Positions 1 through 54,791 of a DNA stretch of 64,000 nucleotides are shown here, one piece after another (positions within the stretch are counted from its first letter, which is position 1; every line of letters begins with the position of its first letter). Source of the DNA: Candidatus Hadarchaeales archaeon (GTDB lineage Archaea > Hadarchaeota > Hadarchaeia > Hadarchaeales > Hadarchaeaceae); assembly GCA_038872135.1 (NCBI GenBank), contig JAVZGN010000001.1:64147-128146 (forward strand), read 5' to 3'. Below the pieces are notes generated by a model. The model was not told where the DNA came from, did not search any database, and worked only from the letters and a program-made list of their open reading frames with translations. The position numbers and the translations under genes were made by a program.

Positions 1-1995
1 GGAAAAGTTGAAGAGGTGGACGGCATGAAAACACTCCTGTTGACCTCCCCCCCAAGGAAAGTAGAGCTTCCCCTCCCCGAGCTCAACATCATGAGCTTTG
101 ACATAGAGGTTTACAACCCGGTGGGGACACCCAGGCCGGAAAAAGACCCAATCCTGATGATAAGCTTGGCAGATAACCATGGGCTGAGGAAGGTGATTAC
201 ATGGAAGGAGGGCGCGAAGCCATCATTTGTCGATATCGTTGGAAGCGAGAGGGAGATGGTAGAAAAATTCATGAAGATTCTGAAGGAAAGGAAGGTTGAC
301 ATCCTCCTCGGCTACAACACCGACTTTTTCGACTTCCCCTACCTGATCGAAAGAGCAAGACAGCTGAAGCTGGGCCCAATTTTTGGAAAAGGAGGGATCA
401 CAACTAGAAGGAGAAAATTTGCGACCGCTACAAAACTTAGATCAGCAGTTCACGTTGATCTCTTCGCTGCAGTAAACTTTCTCGCCACGATCGGGACGAT
501 TAGGTTGATCCACTACACCTTGGAAGATGTTTATCGCCACCTCCTCGGAAAAGAAAAACCAGATTTCGAGTTCACCAAGTTTGTGGAGGCCTGGGAGAAG
601 GGGGGGAAGCTCTGGCAGGACCTCCTAGACTACTCCCTCTCAGATGCAGTGGCCACCCTCGAGATCGGGCTGGAGATTCTTCCTCTTTTCATAGAGCTTT
701 CAAGGGCCGTCGGGCAGACCCTTTTTGATGTTACGAGGATGAGCCCCGGGCAGCTGGTGGAGTGGCTCCTCATCTCGAGCGCTCATAGATTCAGGGAGAT
801 GATCCCGGCCAGGCCAGTTGGAGAAGAGTTTGAGGAGAGGGCCATGGAAACCTACACCGGGGCCTATGTCATGGAGCCGGTGAAGGGCCTCCACGAGAAC
901 CTTGTGGTATTTGATTTCAGGTCCCTCTATCCATCAATAATTGTCACCCACAACATCGACCCCTCAACGCTCAATTGCGAGTGCTGCTCCCCCTCGGTAA
1001 AAGTCCCGGAACTTGGACATCACTTCTGCCAGAAGAATAGAGGGTTCATCCCAGCCACCCTTGAAGAAATCCTCAAGGAAAGGCTGGCGCTGAAAGAGGA
1101 GATGAAGAAACATAGAAAAGGCACCAAAGAGTACCAGTCCCTCTACACAAGGCAGTGGGCTTTCAAAATCCTCGCCAACTCCTTCTATGGAATGCTTGGC
1201 TATCCCAGGGCCCGCTGGTACTGCAAAGAGTGTGCGGAAAGCGTCACAAGTTTCGGCCGCCACTACATCCACCAGAGCATAAAGATGGCCGAGGACTTCG
1301 GCTTCAAGGTGATCTATGGAGATACAGATTCTCTTCACTGCAGGCTTGAGGGGAAATCGAAAGAGGATGCTCTCAAATTCCTGGCGGAGGTCAACAGGAA
1401 GCTTCCCGGAGCCCTGGAGCTTGAGCTGGAAGGGTTCTACCCCCGCGGCATCTTCATCACAAAAAAGCGATACGCCCTCATAGATGAGGAGGGAAGAATC
1501 ACTGTCAAAGGGCTGGAGTTCGTTAGGAGGGACTGGGCGGCAATAGCAAAGAAGACCCAGGAGGAGGTCCTCAAGGCCATTCTCAAAGATGGATCAAAGG
1601 AAAAGGCTGCTGAGATCATCCGCGAGACCACTAGAAAAATTTACGAGGGGAAGATAGACCTACAGGATCTCATCATCTACACCCAGCTGAAAATGCCAAT
1701 AGAAAGCTATCGCTCGGTGGGCCCCCATGTTGTCGCAGCGAAACGCTTGCGGAGCACAGGGCGGGAGGTGGAACCGGGGATGATGATCGCTTACGTGGAG
1801 GTGAGGGGGCCAGGGAGCATAAGCGAGAGGGCATATCCTGTGGAGCTATTGGAGGGAAAAAGCTACGACCCGGACTACTATGTCAACAATCAGGTTCTCC
1901 CTGCTGTGATGAGGATAATGGAGGTTCTCGGCTACCGGGAGGATGACCTGAAGTTTGAGAAGGAGAAGCAGGTTGGGCTTGACAGGTTCATGTGA
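1..1995 (+). CDS. polB: Family B DNA polymerase (PolB), 5'-partial; reading frame is open back to window position 1
   Basis: Exo I motif FDIEVY near the N-terminus, motif A DFRSLYPSII, motif B KILANSFYG, motif C YGDTDS. The N-terminal domain expected upstream of Exo I is absent, so the gene is truncated by the window edge. Confidence 0.9.
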   Translation, partial: GKVEEVDGMKTLLLTSPPRKVELPLPELNIMSFDIEVYNPVGTPRPEKDPILMISLADNHGLRKVITWKEGAKPSFVDIVGSEREMVEKFMKILKERKVDILLGYNTDFFDFPYLIERARQLKLGPIFGKGGITTRRRKFATATKLRSAVHVDLFAAVNFLATIGTIRLIHYTLEDVYRHLLGKEKPDFEFTKFVEAWEKGGKLWQDLLDYSLSDAVATLEIGLEILPLFIELSRAVGQTLFDVTRMSPGQLVEWLLISSAHRFREMIPARPVGEEFEERAMETYTGAYVMEPVKGLHENLVVFDFRSLYPSIIVTHNIDPSTLNCECCSPSVKVPELGHHFCQKNRGFIPATLEEILKERLALKEEMKKHRKGTKEYQSLYTRQWAFKILANSFYGMLGYPRARWYCKECAESVTSFGRHYIHQSIKMAEDFGFKVIYGDTDSLHCRLEGKSKEDALKFLAEVNRKLPGALELELEGFYPRGIFITKKRYALIDEEGRITVKGLEFVRRDWAAIAKKTQEEVLKAILKDGSKEKAAEIIRETTRKIYEGKIDLQDLIIYTQLKMPIESYRSVGPHVVAAKRLRSTGREVEPGMMIAYVEVRGPGSISERAYPVELLEGKSYDPDYYVNNQVLPAVMRIMEVLGYREDDLKFEKEKQVGLDRFM

Positions 1996-18992: not shown

Positions 18993-19089
18993 GGGCCCGT
19001 GGCTCAGTCTGGTTAGAGCAGCCGACCCCTTTGGGGGGCTGAAGCTCTTAACCGGCAGGTCGGGGGTTCGAATCCCCCCGGGCCCGCCA
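18993..19089 (+). tRNA. tRNA-Lys(CUU) with a ~19-nt intron, CCA encoded
   Basis: Acceptor GGGCCCG/CGGGCCC, D-arm GCTC..GAGC, T-arm GGGGG-TTCGAAT-CCCCC. The mature anticodon arm GCCGG-CUCUUAA-CCGGC forms only after removing ACCCCTTTGGGGGGCTGAA, which sits inside the anticodon stem. Confidence 0.75.
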
Positions 19090-40515: not shown

Positions 40516-40914
40516 ATGGTTGAGGAAGGAATTTATGGCCCGCTGGGATTCACTGAGCCGATTCTTAGAGTTTTGCGGCCGTATATCCGGGTTGAAGAAG
40601 AGGGGGAAGTTTACACAAAACCTGTGCCATGGAAAGTTTTGAAAAAAGTGAAAAAGCTTGTCCCAGAAAAAAACATGGAATATCGGCATGGAAACGCGCC
40701 AAAAGTTTTAGAAATGTTTGGCTTTGGGAAAGAAGGCGTGGAGTATTTGTGCTATATAGTGACGTCTGAGCGACCGGGGGAGAAATTTTCTATCTATGGA
40801 ATTCTCTTCCCGAAGGAAAATCAGCAGCTTTTAAAGGCGATAAAAAGCAAGGCGTTGGGGCCTCCCACACAGGTTTATGAAGAGAGGGGCCTCCTCGCGC
40901 TCTCGTGGGAGTAG
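40516..40914 (+). CDS. Hypothetical protein
   Basis: 132-aa ORF, no recognisable motif. Confidence 0.35.
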   Translation: MVEEGIYGPLGFTEPILRVLRPYIRVEEEGEVYTKPVPWKVLKKVKKLVPEKNMEYRHGNAPKVLEMFGFGKEGVEYLCYIVTSERPGEKFSIYGILFPKENQQLLKAIKSKALGPPTQVYEERGLLALSWE

Positions 40915-40924
40915 CTGCAGCCGT

Positions 40925-41911
40925 TTAATCTCTTCTCAGCTTTTTGCCCCATCTCGTCAGCTGTACGCGTTTACCGGCTCCAAAGCCAGTTCTCCTGATT
41001 ATCCCCTTTGCTTCCAGCCTTTTCATTGTGCGGGAGAGGGTGGCCTTTGGTATCCCGGTTCTCTCACAGATGGTCTTCTGGAGTAGGTTGTCTTCGCGCA
41101 GGAGCTCTTTGGTCACAGCTCTTTCGTGGTCGGTCAAGAGATTGAGGATTTTTTCAACGTCAGCAGAGCTAAGTGGTTCAGGTCTAGTCAGCTCCTGAGG
41201 AATCTCCACTTTTCTGCCAGCAGCCATCTTTACAAGGATTGCGAGAAGGATTGCTACTACAGCACCGATAGGAACGAGAGTCCAATAAGATCCTTCCTGT
41301 TGGGTCCCCTGGCTAGATTCGGAAGGGGCAGGAGGCGGGGAGGAAAGCTGGAAGGTCATCTCCGCCTGTAATCTACTTTCCGATATTCTCACCCATCTGA
41401 GAGATATCGAATCTCCCGAGGATGAGATAGATGAAGGTGAGGGTTCAGAGTGCAGGAGTTTTGCAAATTTTGGGAGAGTGACAGAGATTTTTGACAGCAT
41501 GGGGGAGGTCGTCCACTGGTATCCGATTGCATAGAAAAGCCCATTATCTGAGGCGATCACAGGTTTTGTCAGCTCAATGATTACAGTGTACCTTTCACCC
41601 TCCATCATCCCCGAGCTGAAGAAAAATTTGATCACAGCTGTGTTGTCTTCTCCTCTGTTTTCAAAAATTAAATTTCGGCCAGAATTGTCCCTGATGGAGA
41701 TGGTTGTGGGTCTCCCCATGACGATTATTTCATCCGAGACATTTTCTCCAGAGGCAACCATTGCATACTCGATGGAGATGATTTCCTTTGCAGAGTTTTC
41801 GCCGATTTCAATGGTAGATTCAGCCCAGGTTATCTGAAAAGTAGGCGCCGCTTTTACAGGGATGGTAAGCAGAAAGACAAGTAGCAGAGGAACAATTTTC
41901 TTTTCCATCAT
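40925..41911 (-). CDS. Membrane-spanning one-component regulator: signal peptide, ~200-aa extracytoplasmic domain, one TM helix, cytoplasmic winged-helix (MarR/TrmB-like) DNA-binding domain
   Basis: MMEKKIVPLLLVFLLTIPVKA signal sequence; TM WTLVPIGAVVAILLAILVKMAAG; C-terminal LLTDHERAVTKELLREDNLLQKTICERTGIPKATLSRTMKRLEAKGIIRR wHTH. Start is probably MMEKK rather than 41968. Confidence 0.6.
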   Translation of the reverse strand: MMEKKIVPLLLVFLLTIPVKAAPTFQITWAESTIEIGENSAKEIISIEYAMVASGENVSDEIIVMGRPTTISIRDNSGRNLIFENRGEDNTAVIKFFFSSGMMEGERYTVIIELTKPVIASDNGLFYAIGYQWTTSPMLSKISVTLPKFAKLLHSEPSPSSISSSGDSISLRWVRISESRLQAEMTFQLSSPPPAPSESSQGTQQEGSYWTLVPIGAVVAILLAILVKMAAGRKVEIPQELTRPEPLSSADVEKILNLLTDHERAVTKELLREDNLLQKTICERTGIPKATLSRTMKRLEAKGIIRRTGFGAGKRVQLTRWGKKLRRD

Positions 41912-42033
41912 TTCTATTCTGCAAAAGTTTAAAAAAATATTTTCGTTTTGGGGTAGCCCCCGTTGCAAAAAATGGAACAGGAAGTTTCACATAATTCTTT
42001 TACCCCACTAATTCCGAGAGAAAATTGATATAG

Positions 42034-45000
42034 ATGGCGATAAAAAGCTATTCATGGAGGAATGAAAAGGCACGGGGAGTTTTGTCTCTGCTACTGGTTC
42101 TAGCCCTCTTGGCTTCTCCAGTTGTTTCAGCTGATCACTCCAGCCAAATAACTTTGGAGCCAACGCTAACGCTCGATAATGTAATAACCCTGTATACAAT
42201 CGTGGTTACGAATACAGGCACCGCAGACAACATAGAAAATGTCAGGATATATGTTCCTGAAAACTTTACCTCTATCCAAGATAATGAAAATGCTGGCTGG
42301 ATTTACCTGTATGATGTTGCTTCCAGAACAATAACTTACTGGACAATGGACAATGCAAAAAAGATTGGCCCCGGCTCTAGTAAAATCTTCAAGTTCAAAG
42401 CCACAACCCCAAATCTTTCCTCCCCTCAGCCCCTTTACGTTAATTGGGCATTTTCAACAAAAGATAACTCAGGTTCTTTGTTTGAGGCACTCCCTGTTTC
42501 AGCCACGGTCGTCCCCGCAATGTTTGCATCCACGGGCCACACCGACAGCGGAATCGACGAGAACGGTGATAGCATTTACGAGTATCTTGGGGTGAATTTT
42601 AAGGTGGATGTCGCAACTCCTGGAAAATATTACGTGAGCGCCTCTTTATATGAGAATGAGAATTTCACATGGGTTTCGTGGGCCACCAGTGATCAACTCT
42701 TCCTAGCAGAAGGACAGCAGACAGTTCAGCTGAGATTCAAAAGCAGTGGAATATACAGGCTGAATAATCCGAGCGTCAACTTCCGGATCGAGGCATGGCT
42801 CTACAATGAAAACTGGTGGTACTTACATAACATCTCTTATATTACTGGTACATATTCTTCCGCCAGTTTTGCACCTCCACCTGTCATGTTTAATCCACCT
42901 CACTCTTTCACTCCACCATCGAGCCTGCCAGATTCCAACGGAAACTCATATGCTGACAACCTCCCGGTTAACGTCGGTGTAAAAGTTACGAAAGCCGGCT
43001 ACTACTGGATCCACGGATGGCTGAGCGAAAATGAAAGCGGATATTACATCACGTGGCTGGATTCGCAGAAGATTTATCTGTCCTCGGATACCACCCTCCA
43101 GCTGGCGTTCGACGGGTGCCGCATACGTCAGGCAAAGCGGTCAGGGTTCTACCGAGCGTACTTTAATATCTCTGATGAGAACTGGAACTGGCTTGACAGC
43201 AGTGAGGCAGTTTCAGACACTCAGTACTCTTGGGAGAATTTTGAGCCGCCGGCGGCAAGCTTCAATCCACCCCACAGCTTCGCGATGATAGACAACGACA
43301 AAGACAACAAATTCGACTATCTTGCGGTTGATGTTAAGCTGAGGGTTAACGTCCCGGGGAGGTACTGGCTGAGTGGCAGCTTGTATGAAAATATAACTGG
43401 AAGCTACGTCACATATATGGAGTCAACTTCGCTATCAGCAAACACAGCAGGCCAATACACTGTTCGGGTGCTGTTCGATGGTACGAGAATTCGATCGTCT
43501 GGGATCTCGGGCCACTACAGGGTCGACATGTCGTTATACGATGGCAACTGGAACTGGCTCGAAAGTGATAGCTATGTGGTGGAGAATTACTATTCGTCGG
43601 ATAACTTCGAGCCACTCGGGGCAACGATCACGTCTGTGTACAGCGACGTTGAAGATCTCAACAACAACCAAAAATTCGATTCACTATTAGTGATAGTCAA
43701 TCTAGATGTCAACAAGGCTGGAAATTATTCCGCCCATGGCTATCTTTCAGACAGCAACTGGACGTACGTCGGCTGGAGCCGCGGTGAGAATTATCTGAGT
43801 GGTAATGGGCAAATAACGGTGAGATTTGATGGCAGGGAGATAAGGAAGGCACGCGCAAATGGTCCCTACCAGGTTTACATTTCTCTTTATGAGAAGGATA
43901 CCGGCACGTATCTTGAAGGTTATTCGGGAGGAGTCGGCGCAGACTATTCATGGGAAGACTTCGAGCCCCAAGCGGCTGAAATCCTTTCTGTGGAGTATGG
44001 TGGAACCGAGGACACGAACGGGAACGGGTTTAAGGATTTTCTAGTGGTGAACGTGGTTGAAAATGTAAATGCCGCCGGGTGGTACAGGGTCGGTGGGAAC
44101 CTCTTTGACAATGAGAACTATATGTGGCTTGGCTGGGCAGAAAATTACGTTTACCTGCCAATAGGCGTCCAGACGGTGCAACTAAGACTTGATGGTTCCA
44201 GAATAAGGAAAGCGGGGATTTCCGGCGGTTACAAGGCCTCAGTTTCTTCATACGATGAGTATTGGAATTGGCTTGGGTGGATGGAGAATAATTTGGGGCA
44301 ATTTAATTGCCAAGATTTCGAACCAGGCGGCGTCGAGATACTCTCAATAGTGACATTTGGTGAAAATACCGACGAAGACAGCTACTTCAACTACTTGGTA
44401 GAGAATGTTAATTTAAAGGTAAACAAGCCAGGGAAATACAGGATAACTGCCAATCTCAGGAAGGACTGGAAGTGGATAGATGGGGCTTGGTCTGAGAATG
44501 ATTTGACGACGGACACAACGGTTCAGCTGCGGTTCAGCGGAAGAAATATTTATTCATCAAGGGAAAACGGCCCATATACCTTGGAGGTATGGATTTCCGA
44601 TGAAATGTGGAACCCAGTTACAGATAATTCTGTAGAAGTTGGTGCAGAGTTCACGTATGAAAATTTCCAGCGTCCACCAGCCGTCATCGCTTCAACCGGG
44701 CACACGGACGAAGGAATAGATACAAACAACAATGAGAATTTTGATTTTCTCTACATAGACGTAAAGGTGAATGTTGCCACACCGGGAAAATATCGCCTGA
44801 GCGGTTCTCTCTTCGACAATAACTGGATGTGGATCGACTGGGCAGAGAACATTGTAACATTGGATGCTGGAGTTGGAAAGAGTGTTGGGCTTTCATTTGG
44901 CGGTTACCGCATCCGCAACTCTGGGAGAAGCGGCCCATACATTGTTGAGCTGTTCTTGGATGAGGTAAAAGAAATGGAACCGTTCAGGCCATGGATACCG

Positions 45001-47622
45001 GCGATGGAGAGGACAGTTTACACCACCCGGGCATACATCCCGGAGAACTTTGAAACCGCACCAATAGAATTTCTGCCGTCATTCACGGAGAATGTTGTGG
45101 ACGAGGATGGAGGAGGATATGACTATTTGACTGTAAATGTGAGCGTTAAGGTCACCACTGAAGGAAGATACTACATTGGGGGATCGCTGTTTACCAGCCC
45201 ACTCATTCAGAAAAATATGCCTCCAAGATCGCCTGTTTGGATTACATGGGCGAGCACTGAGGTGGACCTTACGCCCGGGGTTCATTCAATCCCGCTGAGG
45301 TTTAGAGGAGCAGATATAAACAGAAGCGGAGAAAATGGCCCCTATCGGGCAGATATCAATATCTCAGGCTTTGTCGGTGGAAGATGGGATTGGTTTGGGT
45401 CTACCACCTACATCACGGCAGCATACTTTAGTACTCAGTTCAATCCTCCGCCTGTTGTTATCCTTCCGCCGCCCCACGCAGATTACGGTTACGACTCCGA
45501 TGGTGACAATCTGTATGACTTTATAGTGGTGAGGTTCAAGGTGGATGTGAACAAAGCTGGCAGGTATATAATCGGAGGGGATCTTTGGCCGGCAGGGCAT
45601 GCGATGGAGGAAAAGCAGCTAGGGGTTGGTGTTCAGACGGTGGAACTCCGCTTCTCAGCTTCCAAGATTTATGCAAACAAAACGAATGGACCCTACTGGG
45701 CATACTTCAGCATCATGGATGAAAACTGGAAGCCGCTTGGTTGGGGAAATCACCAGACCGGCAATTATAGATACGACCAGTTTGATCCTCCGCGGGTAGG
45801 GCTGGTCCGGCAGGGTCTTGTCTCATCATCTCCAATGGTCCCGCCGCAGGTGAAGATTTCGGACACAGGCATAAACATAGATCCAGAGAACGATAATCTC
45901 TACGATTTCCTGAAGGTGGATGTGAGCGTTAAGGTCATGGAAAATGGGGTCTACACCGTGATGGGGGCGCTATTTGCACAGAACATAGCTGGGAGTCCAC
46001 CCATCGACTGGGCCGAAAATAGACTGACGCTGAGGACCAGCGATAACACTGTTACCCTCCTCTTTAGTGGGTATGGGGTGGTTCAATCTAGGGTGAACGG
46101 CAAAATATACATTGGGCTGGCTATTCTCGATGAGAACGGTGTGTGGCTAGATACTGAGATTACACCCACGAACGCCTCTTATTCTTATGAGCAGTTTGAG
46201 AACACAAAGAGGGCGCGCTTCGCTATAGTCGCAGGGAAATCTGTCCGGCCAAGCGCTGCAGGTGAAACAGTTTTGGTGAATCTAGAAAACACAGATGCTG
46301 AATCGGTTACTGAAGTTGAGTTGAGGGCCAAAAATAACAGGTCGTCGGCCTCGGTCATAAACATAACCGAGCATGAAGAAGCACCTCTCGGGACAAAAGA
46401 CATTACTGGGGAAGAGCTCAAGTATTTCGACATCACGGTTTCAGATGCGCAGAACATAGAAAGCGCCATTATTCATTTCAAGATTCCGAAATCTGTGGTT
46501 AGCCAGCAGAACATCGATGTTAGCACGATAAGACTCAGGCGGGAAAATATTTTAACCGGTACCACAGTTGAGCTGGAAACATGGTTAGAGGGTGAAGATG
46601 CGAATTACTACTACTTCTCGGCCAGAACTCCAGGATTCTCGTTCTTCGTGGTGGTGGGGCAGCTGAGACAGCCTTCACCACCCCCGCCATCCCCAGGACC
46701 ACCCACAGTTGGCCCCTCTCCAGCGACTTTTGAGTTCAGTGTCTTTGAAGTTCCGGATGTTATAAAGATAGGCGAGAAGGCAGTCATAAGCTTTACTATA
46801 AAGAACACTGGGGGGACGGCCGGGACTTACACTGTGATTCTCTCGCTGGACAATGTTGTTCTAGAGAGCAGGACGATAACGCTGGCTCCAGGTGAGAACC
46901 AGCGGGTAAGCTTTGAAGTTATCCCGCCGGCTATAGGGACATTTCTCATTCAAATTGCTGGGCAGACTGCAGAACTCACAGTGCTGCCAGAGTTGATCGT
47001 TTCTCAAGATCTTGTGGCGGTGAGCTTGGAGCCCATTTACATAGACAGGATTTCCGTTGAAACCCCGCTAACACTGAGCTTCACAGAAACTGCGATAACC
47101 AAGTTGACCCTCAGCGTCTGGAAAGAAGTTTCTGGAGTTATTCTGAAGATAAAGCAGTTGAAAGCCCTTCCATCCGAGGTTCCGGTCCCGGAAACACCAG
47201 TTTTTACATACCTTGAAATCACGGCCGAGAAGCTTCCAAGCTCAGACATAAACAATGCTCTGATTTCATTCAAGGTTGAGAAATCCTGGGTAATAAGTGA
47301 AAATATAGCAGAAAATGAGATAGCGCTCCTAAGATATCACTCCGGCGAATGGCAAAAGCTCAGGACAGAGAAACTCGGCGAAGATGATAGATATCTTTAC
47401 TTCACTGCCATCTCCCCAGGCTTCTCAATCTTTGCTATATCTGGGGAAAGGGCGGCTGCCATAACTCCACCCGGCGTTACGCCGACCCTTCCAACCCAGC
47501 CGTTTGCCCCGATACCGTCAATATATCTTGTGGCGATAACAGCGCTGATATTAATTGGTGTAATTCTGGCGGTGGTCTGGAGGTACATCTCTCTAGGAAC
47601 GAAGAGGCTACCAGTGGAGTGA
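42034..47622 (+). CDS. Giant secreted surface protein (1862 aa): signal peptide, DUF11-like N-domain, ten tandem ~115-aa repeats, two PGF-pre-PGF-like domains, a CARDB-like domain, and a C-terminal TM anchor
   Basis: Signal peptide ~aa 1-33. TVTNTG-type DUF11 motif at aa 55-62. Repeats ending in ...YDENWNWL...FEPP (aa ~165-1390). Pro-rich linker PSPPPPSPGPPTVGPSP. CARDB-like TIKNTGGTAGTYTVIL. Two copies of ...YFSARTPGFSFFVV / ...YFTAISPGFSIFAI. C-terminal hydrophobic IYLVAITALILIGVILAVVW followed by RYISLGTKR. Confidence 0.8.
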   Translation: MAIKSYSWRNEKARGVLSLLLVLALLASPVVSADHSSQITLEPTLTLDNVITLYTIVVTNTGTADNIENVRIYVPENFTSIQDNENAGWIYLYDVASRTITYWTMDNAKKIGPGSSKIFKFKATTPNLSSPQPLYVNWAFSTKDNSGSLFEALPVSATVVPAMFASTGHTDSGIDENGDSIYEYLGVNFKVDVATPGKYYVSASLYENENFTWVSWATSDQLFLAEGQQTVQLRFKSSGIYRLNNPSVNFRIEAWLYNENWWYLHNISYITGTYSSASFAPPPVMFNPPHSFTPPSSLPDSNGNSYADNLPVNVGVKVTKAGYYWIHGWLSENESGYYITWLDSQKIYLSSDTTLQLAFDGCRIRQAKRSGFYRAYFNISDENWNWLDSSEAVSDTQYSWENFEPPAASFNPPHSFAMIDNDKDNKFDYLAVDVKLRVNVPGRYWLSGSLYENITGSYVTYMESTSLSANTAGQYTVRVLFDGTRIRSSGISGHYRVDMSLYDGNWNWLESDSYVVENYYSSDNFEPLGATITSVYSDVEDLNNNQKFDSLLVIVNLDVNKAGNYSAHGYLSDSNWTYVGWSRGENYLSGNGQITVRFDGREIRKARANGPYQVYISLYEKDTGTYLEGYSGGVGADYSWEDFEPQAAEILSVEYGGTEDTNGNGFKDFLVVNVVENVNAAGWYRVGGNLFDNENYMWLGWAENYVYLPIGVQTVQLRLDGSRIRKAGISGGYKASVSSYDEYWNWLGWMENNLGQFNCQDFEPGGVEILSIVTFGENTDEDSYFNYLVENVNLKVNKPGKYRITANLRKDWKWIDGAWSENDLTTDTTVQLRFSGRNIYSSRENGPYTLEVWISDEMWNPVTDNSVEVGAEFTYENFQRPPAVIASTGHTDEGIDTNNNENFDFLYIDVKVNVATPGKYRLSGSLFDNNWMWIDWAENIVTLDAGVGKSVGLSFGGYRIRNSGRSGPYIVELFLDEVKEMEPFRPWIPAMERTVYTTRAYIPENFETAPIEFLPSFTENVVDEDGGGYDYLTVNVSVKVTTEGRYYIGGSLFTSPLIQKNMPPRSPVWITWASTEVDLTPGVHSIPLRFRGADINRSGENGPYRADINISGFVGGRWDWFGSTTYITAAYFSTQFNPPPVVILPPPHADYGYDSDGDNLYDFIVVRFKVDVNKAGRYIIGGDLWPAGHAMEEKQLGVGVQTVELRFSASKIYANKTNGPYWAYFSIMDENWKPLGWGNHQTGNYRYDQFDPPRVGLVRQGLVSSSPMVPPQVKISDTGINIDPENDNLYDFLKVDVSVKVMENGVYTVMGALFAQNIAGSPPIDWAENRLTLRTSDNTVTLLFSGYGVVQSRVNGKIYIGLAILDENGVWLDTEITPTNASYSYEQFENTKRARFAIVAGKSVRPSAAGETVLVNLENTDAESVTEVELRAKNNRSSASVINITEHEEAPLGTKDITGEELKYFDITVSDAQNIESAIIHFKIPKSVVSQQNIDVSTIRLRRENILTGTTVELETWLEGEDANYYYFSARTPGFSFFVVVGQLRQPSPPPPSPGPPTVGPSPATFEFSVFEVPDVIKIGEKAVISFTIKNTGGTAGTYTVILSLDNVVLESRTITLAPGENQRVSFEVIPPAIGTFLIQIAGQTAELTVLPELIVSQDLVAVSLEPIYIDRISVETPLTLSFTETAITKLTLSVWKEVSGVILKIKQLKALPSEVPVPETPVFTYLEITAEKLPSSDINNALISFKVEKSWVISENIAENEIALLRYHSGEWQKLRTEKLGEDDRYLYFTAISPGFSIFAISGERAAAITPPGVTPTLPTQPFAPIPSIYLVAITALILIGVILAVVWRYISLGTKRLPVE

Positions 47623-47624
47623 GG

Positions 47625-48869
47625 TCACCTTTTGACCAGTTCCTCCATCTCCATAAACAGCTTCTTAAGGTAGAGATATATGAGATAACCCAAGCAAATG
47701 ACTCCGAAAATAAACATCAGCGATTGCAGGGCCATTCCTCCCTCAGGCCAGAAATGCTCCATCACCGTTCCAGGCTGGACAATGTTGTATAGGCCATGAA
47801 AGAGAATCAGCCCAAAAACATTTCTCGTCCTGTAGTAGGCTATCCCCCACCACAGGGCAATCAAGAAGAGTCCTCCGAGGAAAAAGATACCAGTTGGGCC
47901 AAAGGAAAGGTACCAGAGGTGGAGGGAAGCAAAGAGCGCTGCACTGGCGGCTATTGCTTTGGTCCCTCCGAGCACAGACAGCCTCTCTATCATGAAACCC
48001 CGGAAAACTATTTCTTCTGTGAAAGCAACCGGGAAGAAGAAGGCAAAGCCAAGATAAATGAAATACCAGTCGGCCGAGGCTCCAAAGAACCCCCGCATCA
48101 TTGATTCTGGATTTGCTCCAACAAAAAGCTGCACAACGCTCCAGTAGAAGTAGATGATCACGGTGAAAATTACTGAAAGGGCGAAAACCCAGATGACGCT
48201 GTCGAGCATTTTTTCCCGCTTCACCCCGACAGATGGCCAGAACTTCCTCCCCTCAAACCTAGTTGTGTGGAGGTAGGCTATAGCAAGGGCTGTTGTGAAA
48301 GTTACAGCGTGAGAGAGGACATCGGAGATCTCTCTCCCAGTTCTCCACCGCAGAACCCACGCCGTTTCCACATTCTCCCCTGTGGCGTTGTCAACCATCA
48401 GAAGTTCATGAAAGCCATATGAAAGATTTTCAACGCTTAGGACCACCGGCACCGGTTTATTTTCTCCAGCCTTTAGAGCAACACTGAAATCAGCTCTGGC
48501 ATCGCCAAGTTTTAGGGAATACATCTTTGCCACAGAATTTTCCGAGAGGTTCGAGAAATTGACTGTAATAATTGACAGCAAATTTTCATAGATTGTCATG
48601 GGCTCGTGGTTTTCCACTATATAGATGAGAAGATTATCAATGGGAGGAGGTGCATTTTCCATTTCATAAACAGAAATGGCCTCGCTGCCGTAGGCTGATG
48701 CAACAACGCTGGCAAAAAGCATAGCGCTGAGGACGCAGATGTAAACCACTAACGGCCCAAGCCACCACGGCTCTTTTCCTAGAGCCGGTTTTTCGGTGGG
48801 TCTCGGCAACGGTTTTTTCACAGTTTTCCCGCTACTTTTGGCAGGCATTCGATTTAGATTTGGCATCAT
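47625..48869 (-). CDS. CPBP-family (CAAX protease/Abi) intramembrane metalloprotease with an N-terminal TM plus ~130-aa extracytoplasmic domain
   Basis: CPBP motifs EEIVFR (motif 1), FASLH (motif 2), HGLYN (motif 3) within a polytopic C-terminal half. Confidence 0.7.
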   Translation of the reverse strand: MMPNLNRMPAKSSGKTVKKPLPRPTEKPALGKEPWWLGPLVVYICVLSAMLFASVVASAYGSEAISVYEMENAPPPIDNLLIYIVENHEPMTIYENLLSIITVNFSNLSENSVAKMYSLKLGDARADFSVALKAGENKPVPVVLSVENLSYGFHELLMVDNATGENVETAWVLRWRTGREISDVLSHAVTFTTALAIAYLHTTRFEGRKFWPSVGVKREKMLDSVIWVFALSVIFTVIIYFYWSVVQLFVGANPESMMRGFFGASADWYFIYLGFAFFFPVAFTEEIVFRGFMIERLSVLGGTKAIAASAALFASLHLWYLSFGPTGIFFLGGLFLIALWWGIAYYRTRNVFGLILFHGLYNIVQPGTVMEHFWPEGGMALQSLMFIFGVICLGYLIYLYLKKLFMEMEELVKR

Positions 48870-52121: not shown

Positions 52122-52199
52122 GCTCCGGTGGTGTAGCCCGGTCAAACATGCGAGCCTCTCGAGCTCGCGCCCCGGGTTCAAATCCCGGCCGGAGCACCA
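52122..52199 (+). tRNA. tRNA-Glu(CUC), CCA encoded
   Basis: Acceptor GCTCCGG/CCGGAGC (perfect), anticodon arm CGAGC-CUCUCGA-GCUCG, T-arm CCGGG-TTCAAAT-CCCGG. Confidence 0.8.
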
Positions 52200-54205: not shown

Positions 54206-54607
54206 TCATCGGGGCTCTTGGGGCTTTCTGACGAGAATAACGGTACAGGGAGCATTTCTCACCAAATAGTCCGTTACCGATTCTGAGAGGTAGCCAACCA
54301 AGCCCTTTCTTGGGATGGTGCCGCTGATGATCACATCGCACATATTTTTTTTGGCGAAAGTTACGATGGCTTTTTTTGGATCCACCGATTCCACTAGTTC
54401 AAGCTTGGCGTTTATGTGATTTTTTTTCAGAAATTTTAGAAATGGTGAGAATAGCTCTTCGGATTTCTTCCGCGCGAATTCATTGAGAACCCTTACAACA
54501 TGGAGGAGATAAACCTCCGTCTTTTTTGTGGAGAGTTTGCTTGCAATCTTTATCACTTCACTTGAGGTGGCCTCGGTGACGCAAACAACCATTTTCTTGA
54601 ACATCAA
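54206..54607 (-). CDS. Universal stress protein (UspA family)
   Basis: MVVCVTEATSS...LLHVV...DVIISGTIPRKG...GSVTDYLVRNAPCTVILVR. Confidence 0.75.
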   Translation of the reverse strand: MMFKKMVVCVTEATSSEVIKIASKLSTKKTEVYLLHVVRVLNEFARKKSEELFSPFLKFLKKNHINAKLELVESVDPKKAIVTFAKKNMCDVIISGTIPRKGLVGYLSESVTDYLVRNAPCTVILVRKPQEPR

Positions 54608-54677: not shown

Positions 54678-54764
54678 GCGGGGGTGCCTGAGCATGGCCT
54701 AAAGGGCAGGACTTAAGATCCTGTGCCCCAAGGGGCTTCGCAGGTTCGAATCCTGCCCCCCGCA
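54678..54764 (+). tRNA. tRNA-Leu(UAA), class II with long variable arm
   Basis: Acceptor GCGGGGG/CCCCCGC, anticodon arm CAGGA-CUUAAGA-UCCUG, variable arm GCCCC-AA-GGGGC, T-arm GCAGG-TTCGAAT-CCTGC. Confidence 0.8.
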
Positions 54765-54791
54765 CCTGTAGAATGAATGGACAGCTTTAAC

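Follow-up and report, generated by a model that had tools for sequence, protein, structure and literature searches.

The minus-strand gene at positions 40925..41908 of a 64,000-nucleotide stretch of the genome of a Candidatus Hadarchaeales archaeon (contig JAVZGN010000001.1; the whole stretch is referred to here as the window) encodes a protein with a signal-peptide-like N-terminus, a β-rich ectodomain, a single predicted transmembrane (TM) helix and a C-terminal domain of the winged helix-turn-helix (wHTH) type. We find it probable that this protein is a type-I single-pass TM regulator that acts on a tripartite operator, with a divergently transcribed gene for a giant surface protein and its own gene as the targets. 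The protein represents a new family with an orphan ectodomain, so far found mainly in Hadarchaeota, in which a type-I layout is combined with a minimal C-terminal MarR-type wHTH and, on the evidence of comparative sequence analysis, with a conserved candidate operator and a candidate target gene. A first-pass annotation of the window had proposed a one-component TM transcription factor with an extracytoplasmic sensor domain, and the core of that reading, namely a one-component, single-pass TM transcription factor with an ectodomain and a cytoplasmic MarR-type wHTH, survived all of the tests that we ran.

Domain architecture and predicted topology

Hydropathy analysis revealed only two hydrophobic segments in the regulator, an N-terminal h-region (residues ~5-24, ending VKA/AP, where the slash marks the predicted cleavage point) and a TM segment (residues ~209-231) that is followed by GRK. 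The first of these is part of a predicted signal peptide that covers residues 1-20 (41849..41908, on the minus strand as are all parts of the protein described here; MEKKIVPLLLVFLLTIPVKA/AP) and that has a basic n-region, an h-region and a small-x-small/Q site kept in the family. Between the two hydrophobic segments lies the extracytoplasmic domain (residues ~21-208; 41285..41848). An AlphaFold2 model built from a 15-sequence family alignment, with a mean predicted local distance difference test score (pLDDT) of 86, presents this domain as a β-sandwich with 14 strands within residues 24-188, mostly at a pLDDT >90, followed by a disordered Pro/Ser-rich stalk of low confidence (residues ~190-208). 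The ectodomain is net acidic, with 14 Lys and Arg residues vs 22 Asp and Glu. The single TM helix (residues ~209-231; 41216..41284) is indicated both by a Kyte-Doolittle 19-mer peak of 2.56 at residues 211-229 and by an AlphaFold2 helix at residues 211-230. Beyond it come a K/R cluster and a flexible basic, proline-containing linker (residues ~232-246; 41171..41215; GRKVEIPQELTRPEP...), with a pLDDT <50 at residues 231-235, and then the wHTH (residues ~247-322; 40943..41170).

Over its last ~100 residues the protein is strongly basic (23 K/R vs 13 D/E), and the positive-inside rule predicts an N-out/C-in orientation, with the wHTH in the cytoplasm and not outside the cell, in all 18 of the 18 family proteins examined. 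Each of these 18 has an N-terminus like a signal peptide, an ectodomain of net acidic charge, one TM helix with a K/R cluster behind it and a strongly basic C-terminal part of ~100 aa. Very probably, therefore, the protein is membrane-anchored with a cytoplasmic wHTH. The signal peptide or signal anchor, the β-rich extracellular region and the single TM helix that the first-pass annotation had described were thus all recovered.

The same can be said of the wHTH, called MarR/TrmB-like, that had been placed at the extreme C-terminus. In Pfam searches it scored above the cut-offs for MarR_2 (37.9 bits vs 27; residues ~247-322) and HTH_24 (28.8 bits vs 21.9). It remained under the cut-offs for MarR itself (PF01047; 21.8 bits, cut-off 24.6) and for TrmB (22.8 bits, cut-off 25.6), and the Regulator_TrmB domain was not present in the Pfam scan, which together place the protein outside the TrmB family. 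Scores for two haloarchaeal wHTH families were also below their cut-offs (DUF7343, 26.5 vs 27.6; HVO_A0261_N, 26.8 vs 35); because some relatives pass the DUF7343 cut-off (those of loci L013 and L006, with 33.5 and 28.2 bits, respectively), we regard the wHTH of the regulator as close to this family. The family profile aligns the domain to solved wHTH domains of the ROK-XylR, MarR, HosA and Lrs14-like types in the PDB. In the AlphaFold2 model the wHTH core amounts to ~75 aa after the linker and consists of one short extra helix, a three-helix core and a wing (helices at residues 248-256, 260-271, 277-284 and 288-300; wing strands at 304-307 and 314-317); what canonical MarR proteins have for dimerisation, namely flanking N- and C-terminal helices, is absent from the model. 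The recognition helix (IPKATLSRTMKRLE) contains three residues that are invariant in the family alignment (T290, S292 and R293), and the wing reads GFGAGKRVQLT. No second copy of the wHTH was found in the 64-kb window.

The coding sequence of 327 codons plus stop was delimited by the open reading frame (ORF) list, by identity to a National Center for Biotechnology Information (NCBI) protein and by the family alignment. The ORF ends at 40925 and has in-frame ATGs at 41911 and 41908, giving a product of 328 or 327 aa, so that the coordinates of the first-pass annotation (40925-41911) are correct to within one codon. The NCBI protein (P0001; 327 aa, from 'Candidatus Hadarchaeales archaeon' metagenome-assembled genomes (MAGs)) is 100% identical to the regulator and has its modelled start at 41908; over the 9 kb compared, the window and the contig of one such MAG are 99.97% identical. 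We took the start to be 41908/41911 because a longer version beginning at a TTG at 41968 would cover the promoter region and the candidate operator, and because none of the homologues is extended in this way. An exhaustive HMMER search gave relatives of the same size and architecture down to ~25% identity, so the ORF is not there by chance.

A family with an orphan ectodomain

The family was revealed when the ectodomain by itself served as the query in an exhaustive HMMER search, which gave 23 matches at E<=0.001 among 1.84 billion representatives; word-indexed searches were nearly blind to it, returning two matches with the full protein, seven with a family alignment (A1) and a single short one with an alignment of the TM and wHTH module (A4). 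Sixteen of the 23 matches were retrieved as candidate members, comprising 12 full-length proteins (320-389 aa) and four shorter or partial ones (135-287 aa). Long multi-domain proteins among the matches (P0010, P0017 and P0019-P0023) were set aside as composition-driven, as they gave no match to the family hidden Markov model (HMM) at E<=0.01. All full-length members share one layout: a signal-peptide-like N-terminus with a small-x-small/Q site, an acidic ectodomain, one TM segment, a K/R cluster, a Pro/Lys/Arg linker and the wHTH. The wHTH is highly conserved, with the consensus (N/D)LTQxxLCxxTGIPKATMSRxLxxLExKG...GxGxxKRVxLTxW. Every named source of the family belongs to the Hadarchaeota/Hadesarchaea, and for a more distant branch of low GC content metagenomes are the only source.

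The TM and wHTH module also occurs with another kind of outer region. A 652-aa Hadesarchaea protein (L006, 5454..7412, plus strand) carries the same module at 44% identity beneath an ectodomain of Big_13, fn3 and purple-acid-phosphatase-N-like repeats, which indicates that the cytoplasmic module has been combined with different outer domains by domain shuffling. The gene for this protein lies directly downstream of an Lrp/AsnC-like gene. Between the gene for a 754-aa secreted protein and the Lrp-like gene (~4925..4985 of L006), we observed two direct copies of TTGCGAAC(A/C)TCGCAG, a candidate operator of a different kind.

By sequence the ectodomain is an orphan. Comparison of its profile with PDB sequences and Pfam gave no meaningful match, the best being uL6 with an E-value of 0.15. 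The top Foldseek matches of the model in the PDB were human ribophorin I (6s7o_E, 8pn9_E and 8b6l_O; E-values of 1.6e-9 to 7e-9 over ~335 columns, at a root-mean-square deviation (RMSD) of ~24 Å), and we verified that chain E of 6s7o is oligosaccharyltransferase (OST) subunit 1. The N-terminal β domains of M1 aminopeptidases (LTA4H, ERAP1 and APN) matched with E-values of ~1e-7 (to 4e-7) over 200-215 columns at 5.6-7 Å, in agreement with a viral structure library, in which an M1-like aminopeptidase and an inter-alpha-trypsin-inhibitor family protein were found. A sequence relation to ribophorin I was rejected: Pfam Ribophorin_I (PF04597) gave no match at E<=1 with the whole protein or at E<=10 with 12 ectodomains, and hhalign against the lumenal region of human RPN1 returned a probability of 0.3%. 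Also rejected was a resemblance of the ectodomain to domains of the neighbouring giant protein, for which all HMM domain scores were ~0 bits. The model thus suggests a fold-class assignment, to a protein- or glycan-binding β-sandwich, and not membership of the ribophorin family.

A conserved tripartite motif between putative divergent promoters

The intergenic region that separates the regulator from the divergent giant gene is 122 bp long, and the first-pass annotation had pointed to it (41912..42033) as a place to look for palindromes. There we found the inverted repeat TGGAAC-AGGAA-GTTTCA at 41973..41989 (consensus TGRAAC-N5-GTTYCA), a candidate operator that is conserved and lies between two TATA-like boxes. 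The pattern has one match in the 64-kb window, vs 0.02 expected, and this is still the sole match when one mismatch is allowed. A third half-site, GTTGCA on the plus strand (TGCAAC on the minus strand; 41962..41967), stands 11 bp from the nearer arm of the palindrome, so that three hexamers, GTTGCA (41962-67), TGGAAC (41973-78) and GTTTCA (41984-89), are phased at 11 bp along the plus strand.

Four other Hadarchaeota lineages (L003, L004, L005 and L010), in which the regulator is 36-54% identical to that of the window, have the same arrangement. Exactly one palindrome is present at the homologous intergenic place in each of them, and in all five lineages the hexamers form the array TGRAAC-N5-GTTYCA-N5-TGMAAC with start-to-start distances of 11 + 11 bp. 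The third half-site reads TGAAAC in the other four lineages and contributes invariant columns to two alignments (A3 and A5). When the five intergenic regions (100-127 bp) are aligned, three conserved blocks stand out from otherwise diverged DNA: a giant-side TATA-like block (CTTTTAC / CTATAAC / CTATTAC), a regulator-side TATA-like block (TTTATT / TTTTTTTA) and, between them, the hexamers.

Manual reading of these blocks allowed us to place both putative core promoters. The TATA-like box of the giant gene (TTCTTTTAC; 41995..42003, plus strand) falls in the conserved block GTAAAAG/TTATAG/TAATAG of alignment A5, and is 7 nt from the edge of the palindrome and 30 nt before the giant-gene ATG; the candidate operator therefore abuts the position of the TFB-recognition element (BRE). 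The CTTTTTACCCC element of this box recurs at ~-33 before another gene of the window (54206..54604). The AT-rich TATA-like box of the regulator (AAAATATTTTTTTAAA on the minus strand; 41928..41943, minus strand) coincides with the regulator-side block of the same alignment. It ends 19 nt before the regulator ATG, a position that points to a leaderless mRNA or one with a very short leader, and it is 18 nt past the third half-site (24 nt when measured to the TTTAAA core at 41928-41937). By this geometry the whole hexamer array would lie upstream of both core promoters. For other genes of the window, TATA-like boxes read in the same manual way end 13-40 nt before the ATGs. A GC-rich inverted repeat, GGGG-TAG-CCCC, occupies 41950..41960, between the third half-site and the TATA-like box of the regulator; it is not found in the other four intergenic regions and is a lineage-specific insertion.

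Near the more distant relatives in L006-L009 and L012-L017, the palindrome was not found even with two mismatches allowed. In L011, where the regulator is 32% identical to that of the window, the divergent intergenic region (~280..370) contains, within ~50 bp, three TGGAAC hexamers in direct orientation at spacings of 23 and 20 bp. These hexamers, which have the half-site of the window in another arrangement, face the gene for a signal-peptide protein with repeats of the PxNNE...W..V.GA..Y type.

The divergent giant gene and its neighbourhood

The presumed target (42034..47622, plus strand) encodes a surface protein of 1862 aa that we characterised from NCBIfam and Pfam matches, the spacing of its repeats and its C-terminal tail. 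It has a signal peptide, about ten repeats of ~118 aa, two PGF-pre-PGF domains, a Pro/Thr stalk, a C-terminal TM segment and a WRYISxG[KR] tail, and it matches TIGR04213 in NCBIfam (162 bits) as well as Pfam DUF4785_3rd. The pairing of a divergent regulator with an orthologous giant gene is also seen in L003, L004, L005 and L010; between the window and L004 the giant proteins are 36% identical over ~1600 aa. Control of the neighbouring giant gene, which the first-pass annotation had raised as a possibility, is supported by the persistence of this divergent pairing at 36-54% regulator identity and by the tripartite motif between the TATA-like boxes. In a sister MAG (L001; GCA_038874375.1, 3823..9217) the giant gene appears split into parts of 1264 and 509 aa. 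We rejected the idea that it is a pseudogene and consider the split an assembly artefact, because the contig holds 40 Ns and is otherwise 99.7-99.9% identical.

The ends of the giant proteins (47440..47622 in the window, and those of L004 and L010) and of a 1156-aa paralogue all show a Pro/Thr stalk, a TM entry of the P(I/V)(P/Y) type and the sequence (V/I)WRY(I/V)Sx G(T/S)(K/R), which is a strictly conserved cytoplasmic motif of these proteins. No PGF-CTERM was recognisable in the giant proteins or the paralogue despite the PGF-pre-PGF domains. The C-terminus of the giant protein could be a distinct sorting or processing signal, perhaps tied to the adjacent CPBP protease.

This protease, an Rce1-like/CPBP intramembrane protein of 414 aa (47625..48869, minus strand), is encoded convergently with the giant gene and was identified by PF02517 in the identical MAG locus. 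Equivalently placed genes in L010 (532..1791) and L004 (8..1123) match PF02517 with 65 and 52 bits, so in three lineages the giant gene is followed by that of an Rce1-like protease of ~370-420 aa. These proteases have a charged N-terminal tail, an apparent extracellular insert of ~130 aa after the first TM segment and a conserved C-terminal ...F(M/A)EME(E/A)LVKR.

In the distant low-GC branch (L007 44..1081, L008 2..631 and L009 109..1335) the regulator is preceded by a same-strand gene for a secreted protein with a Ser/Thr/Asp-rich low-complexity region, a conserved C-terminal domain ending ...DLNELNYK(D/N)(V/I)(R/K)(G/D)NFR and a weak PepSY match (E-value of 0.0017), which points to an operon whose extracellular partner is another protein.

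On its other side the regulator of the window is convergent with an ORF of 132 aa (40516..40914, plus strand) that is a gene call in both sister MAGs and has no Pfam or NCBIfam match; in L004 and L010 its position is taken by a radical-SAM gene. Elsewhere in the window, we noted a predicted tRNA-Lys(CTT) at 18993..19089 (plus strand), whose length of 97 nt suggests an archaeal tRNA intron, a tRNA-Glu at 52122..52199 and a tRNA-Leu at 54678..54766.

Discussion

In the model that we favour, a Sec-type signal peptide would export the acidic β-sandwich ectodomain of ~185 aa, one helix would cross the membrane, and a basic flexible linker of ~15 residues would tether the minimal MarR_2/HTH_24-type wHTH at the cytoplasmic face. 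There the wHTH would bind the 28-bp tripartite candidate operator, TGRAAC-N5-GTTYCA-N5-TGMAAC, whose hexamers are one helical turn apart. Because the candidate operator sits between the two TATA-like boxes of divergent genes, one bound oligomer could govern both promoters and so combine autoregulation with control of the giant gene. Subunit pairing would have to come from the TM helix, the ectodomain or both, because the wHTH is without MarR dimerisation helices and the site is palindromic with a third half-site. An external cue would then shift the association of the ectodomains and with it the occupancy of the operator and the transcription of the giant gene and the regulator, as in ToxR and CadC. 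Possibly the cue is the state of either the surface layer or the giant protein itself; sensing of the envelope state, which the first-pass annotation had raised as a possibility, is pure inference. The bound DNA would be held at the membrane by the linker of ~15 residues; coupling of transcription, translation and export, if it occurs, would in any case bring the gene for the 1862-aa secreted protein there.

As for the sign of regulation, archaeal regulators such as Ptr2 and those of the TrmB family more often activate from sites upstream of BRE/TATA and repress from sites over or downstream of TATA. The position of the candidate operator upstream of BRE/TATA would fit activation slightly better than repression; repression by exclusion of TFB is also possible, with the site so near the BRE position.

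Several points weigh against the model as a whole. The sign of regulation is not readable from the position of the site alone, and a factor other than this wHTH could bind the motif. DNA affinity of so minimal a wHTH may be low unless dimerisation is forced. The topology is a prediction drawn from hydropathy, from the bias in charge and from a cleavage-like site that the family conserves, and the predicted template modelling score of the AlphaFold2 model is 0.55, which leaves the arrangement of the domains undefined. In addition, the motif was not found upstream of low-GC members (L007-L009 and L013) or of the L006 protein, which limits the operator assignment to the Hadarchaeota clade.

Three other explanations of the locus have to be weighed against the one that we favour. 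The regulator could be subject to regulated proteolysis, in which a membrane protease, perhaps the neighbouring Rce1-like/CPBP protein, frees a soluble wHTH to act on the operator by a Notch-like route. In the window, L010 and L004 alike, the Rce1-like gene is kept on the far side of the giant gene; the type-I layout, in which the juxtamembrane linker is short and unstructured, resembles that of released transcription factors; and in Bacillus the CAAX-protease-like PrsW makes the site-1 cut in RsiW, a single-pass anti-sigma factor. We nevertheless think this route unlikely. A freed wHTH of ~90 aa would be a monomer without a dimerisation surface, yet the site is palindromic; the protease adjoins the giant gene and not the regulator; the C-terminal TM segment and WRYISxG[KR] tail of the giant protein are at least as plausible a substrate; and no cleavage motif is evident in the TM helix or linker of the regulator. 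Scarcely to be expected, in our estimation, is a broader scheme in which regulator, giant protein and Rce1-like protease make up one envelope-feedback module, with the ectodomain reporting assembly of or damage to the giant layer and the protease cleaving either the regulator or the WRYISxG[KR] anchor to set giant-gene expression. If true, this module would amount to an archaeal Notch-like regulated-proteolysis pathway.

The structural matches raise the question of whether the protein is a transcription factor at all. It might instead be a ribophorin-I-like accessory membrane protein that serves to secrete, glycosylate or assemble the giant protein, with a wHTH that binds ribosomes, RNA or protein, the motif then belonging to some other, soluble regulator. 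In structure the whole model is best matched by human ribophorin I (E-values as above), which has a similar gross layout of a lumenal β domain, one TM segment and a cytosolic helical domain, and the cytosolic domain of OST1 binds ribosomes in humans and in an Asgard archaeon (PMC11417166). We think such a role very unlikely, given that neither Pfam nor hhalign supports a relation in sequence, that the ribophorin superposition has so high an RMSD, that the ectodomain matches M1 aminopeptidase N-domains equally, that there is at the C-terminus a genuine wHTH of the MarR type, its recognition helix invariant, and not a four-helix bundle, and that the motif co-occurs with the family in six lineages. 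In the conserved neighbourhood no AglB gene was seen, nor were OST genes found nearby. That the likeness to ribophorin I in fold and layout comes from common ancestry with the OST1 lineage, outside Asgard and TACK, we hold to be even less likely than the envelope-feedback module. The protein could, alternatively, be a membrane-bound regulator whose targets lie elsewhere or are limited to its own promoter, its adjacency to the giant gene being co-inheritance of envelope genes. A wider regulon is possible, the sequence scanned amounting to 64 kb in this genome and to 13-21 kb in the others, and the distant members in L007-L009 have another neighbour, the same-strand gene for a PepSY-like secreted protein. 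We give this account little credence, because the divergent layout, the intergenic length (100-127 bp) and the position of the motif relative to the TATA-like boxes are all kept at 36-54% regulator identity, and because the palindrome is closer to the promoter of the giant gene (7 nt from its TATA-like box) than to that of the regulator.

The first-pass annotation compared the topology to that of ToxR. The one-component concept behind this comparison holds: like ToxR, CadC and TcpP, the regulator has an ectodomain, a single TM segment and a cytoplasmic wHTH on one polypeptide, the wHTH would act on DNA without leaving the membrane, and control of oligomerisation by the outer domain would be expected. 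The order of the domains is reversed, however. ToxR and CadC are N-in proteins with an N-terminal OmpR-type wHTH and a C-terminal periplasmic domain (and, for ToxR, no signal peptide), whereas the regulator described here runs, N-out, from a signal peptide through the ectodomain and TM helix to a C-terminal MarR_2/HTH_24 wHTH, gave no match to Trans_reg_C at E<=1 with the whole protein, and belongs to an archaeal host that uses TBP, TFB and TATA boxes and not sigma-70. Functionally closest are ArnR and ArnR1 of Sulfolobus acidocaldarius, which are archaeal, one-component, membrane-bound activators of archaellum and pilus promoters, and so of surface structures, that work through conserved cis boxes (PMC6396743); they are a precedent for action on DNA by membrane-bound regulators in archaea. 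By its published description ArnR is set apart by an N-terminal HTH, HAMP-like and cytoplasmic sensor domains, two C-terminal TM segments and the lack of a sizeable ectodomain (PMC6396743); no sequence link to ArnR surfaced in the searches run, none of which was a direct comparison with it.

Soluble MarR/HTH_24 proteins, together with ROK-XylR N-domains and Lrs14, share the type of wHTH core, and a short palindromic candidate operator is usual for MarR dimers. MarR proteins characteristically bind a palindrome in or near their own promoter; here the conserved palindrome with its third half-site, a candidate site as judged from sequence, lies upstream of the regulator's own gene. A canonical MarR protein is a homodimer of ~140-160-aa subunits with dimerisation helices and a ligand pocket, and the regulator has a membrane anchor and an ectodomain instead. 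Ribophorin I, whose cytosolic domain is helical and nucleic-acid-binding, matches it by Foldseek in the fold of the ectodomain, at the high RMSD given above, and is similar in gross type-I layout; it differs in having two β domains and a cytosolic four-helix bundle where the regulator has one β domain and a wHTH. The likeness to M1 aminopeptidases is confined to the fold of their N-terminal β domain, the regulator having neither a peptidase domain nor detectable sequence similarity to them.

A census of archaeal regulators bears on how unusual such a protein is. Of 404 archaeal species, Demey et al. (2023) found 367 to have TM transcription regulators, 1,384 in all and ~4 per genome, with single-pass proteins as the commonest type, and found HTH_24 (601) and MarR_2 (273) among 50,302 regulators (PMC10269533). 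The regulator falls within their definition, which asks for at least one TM segment in the same polypeptide as a DNA-binding domain, with MarR_2 and HTH_24 above their cut-offs and a TM segment at residues 209-231. As a general kind, such regulators are thus common among archaea, which contradicts the first-pass annotation, where they had been called uncommon; its description of them as poorly characterised is fair, as very few members have been studied experimentally. The census assigns no operator or target to such proteins, and its supplementary text, as far as we consulted it, contains no match for Hadarchaeota or Hadesarchaea (PMC10269533).

What the locus adds is a genuinely new family of a known kind, and not a new regulatory principle. 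To our knowledge, almost nothing has been learnt about how archaea regulate their large surface and S-layer (surface-layer) type proteins, and experimental work has reached only a few archaeal membrane-bound regulators, ArnR and ArnR1 among them. With a 28-bp tripartite site, two divergent promoters, a DNA-binding domain of ~90 aa that lends itself to separate expression and an orphan ectodomain of known fold class, the locus offers a compact, testable model in an uncultured phylum. If our reading is true, a minimal MarR-type wHTH can be driven by dimerisation at the extracellular or membrane level, and the protein would be the first archaeal type-I TM regulator with a large ectodomain to which an operator and a target have been assigned.

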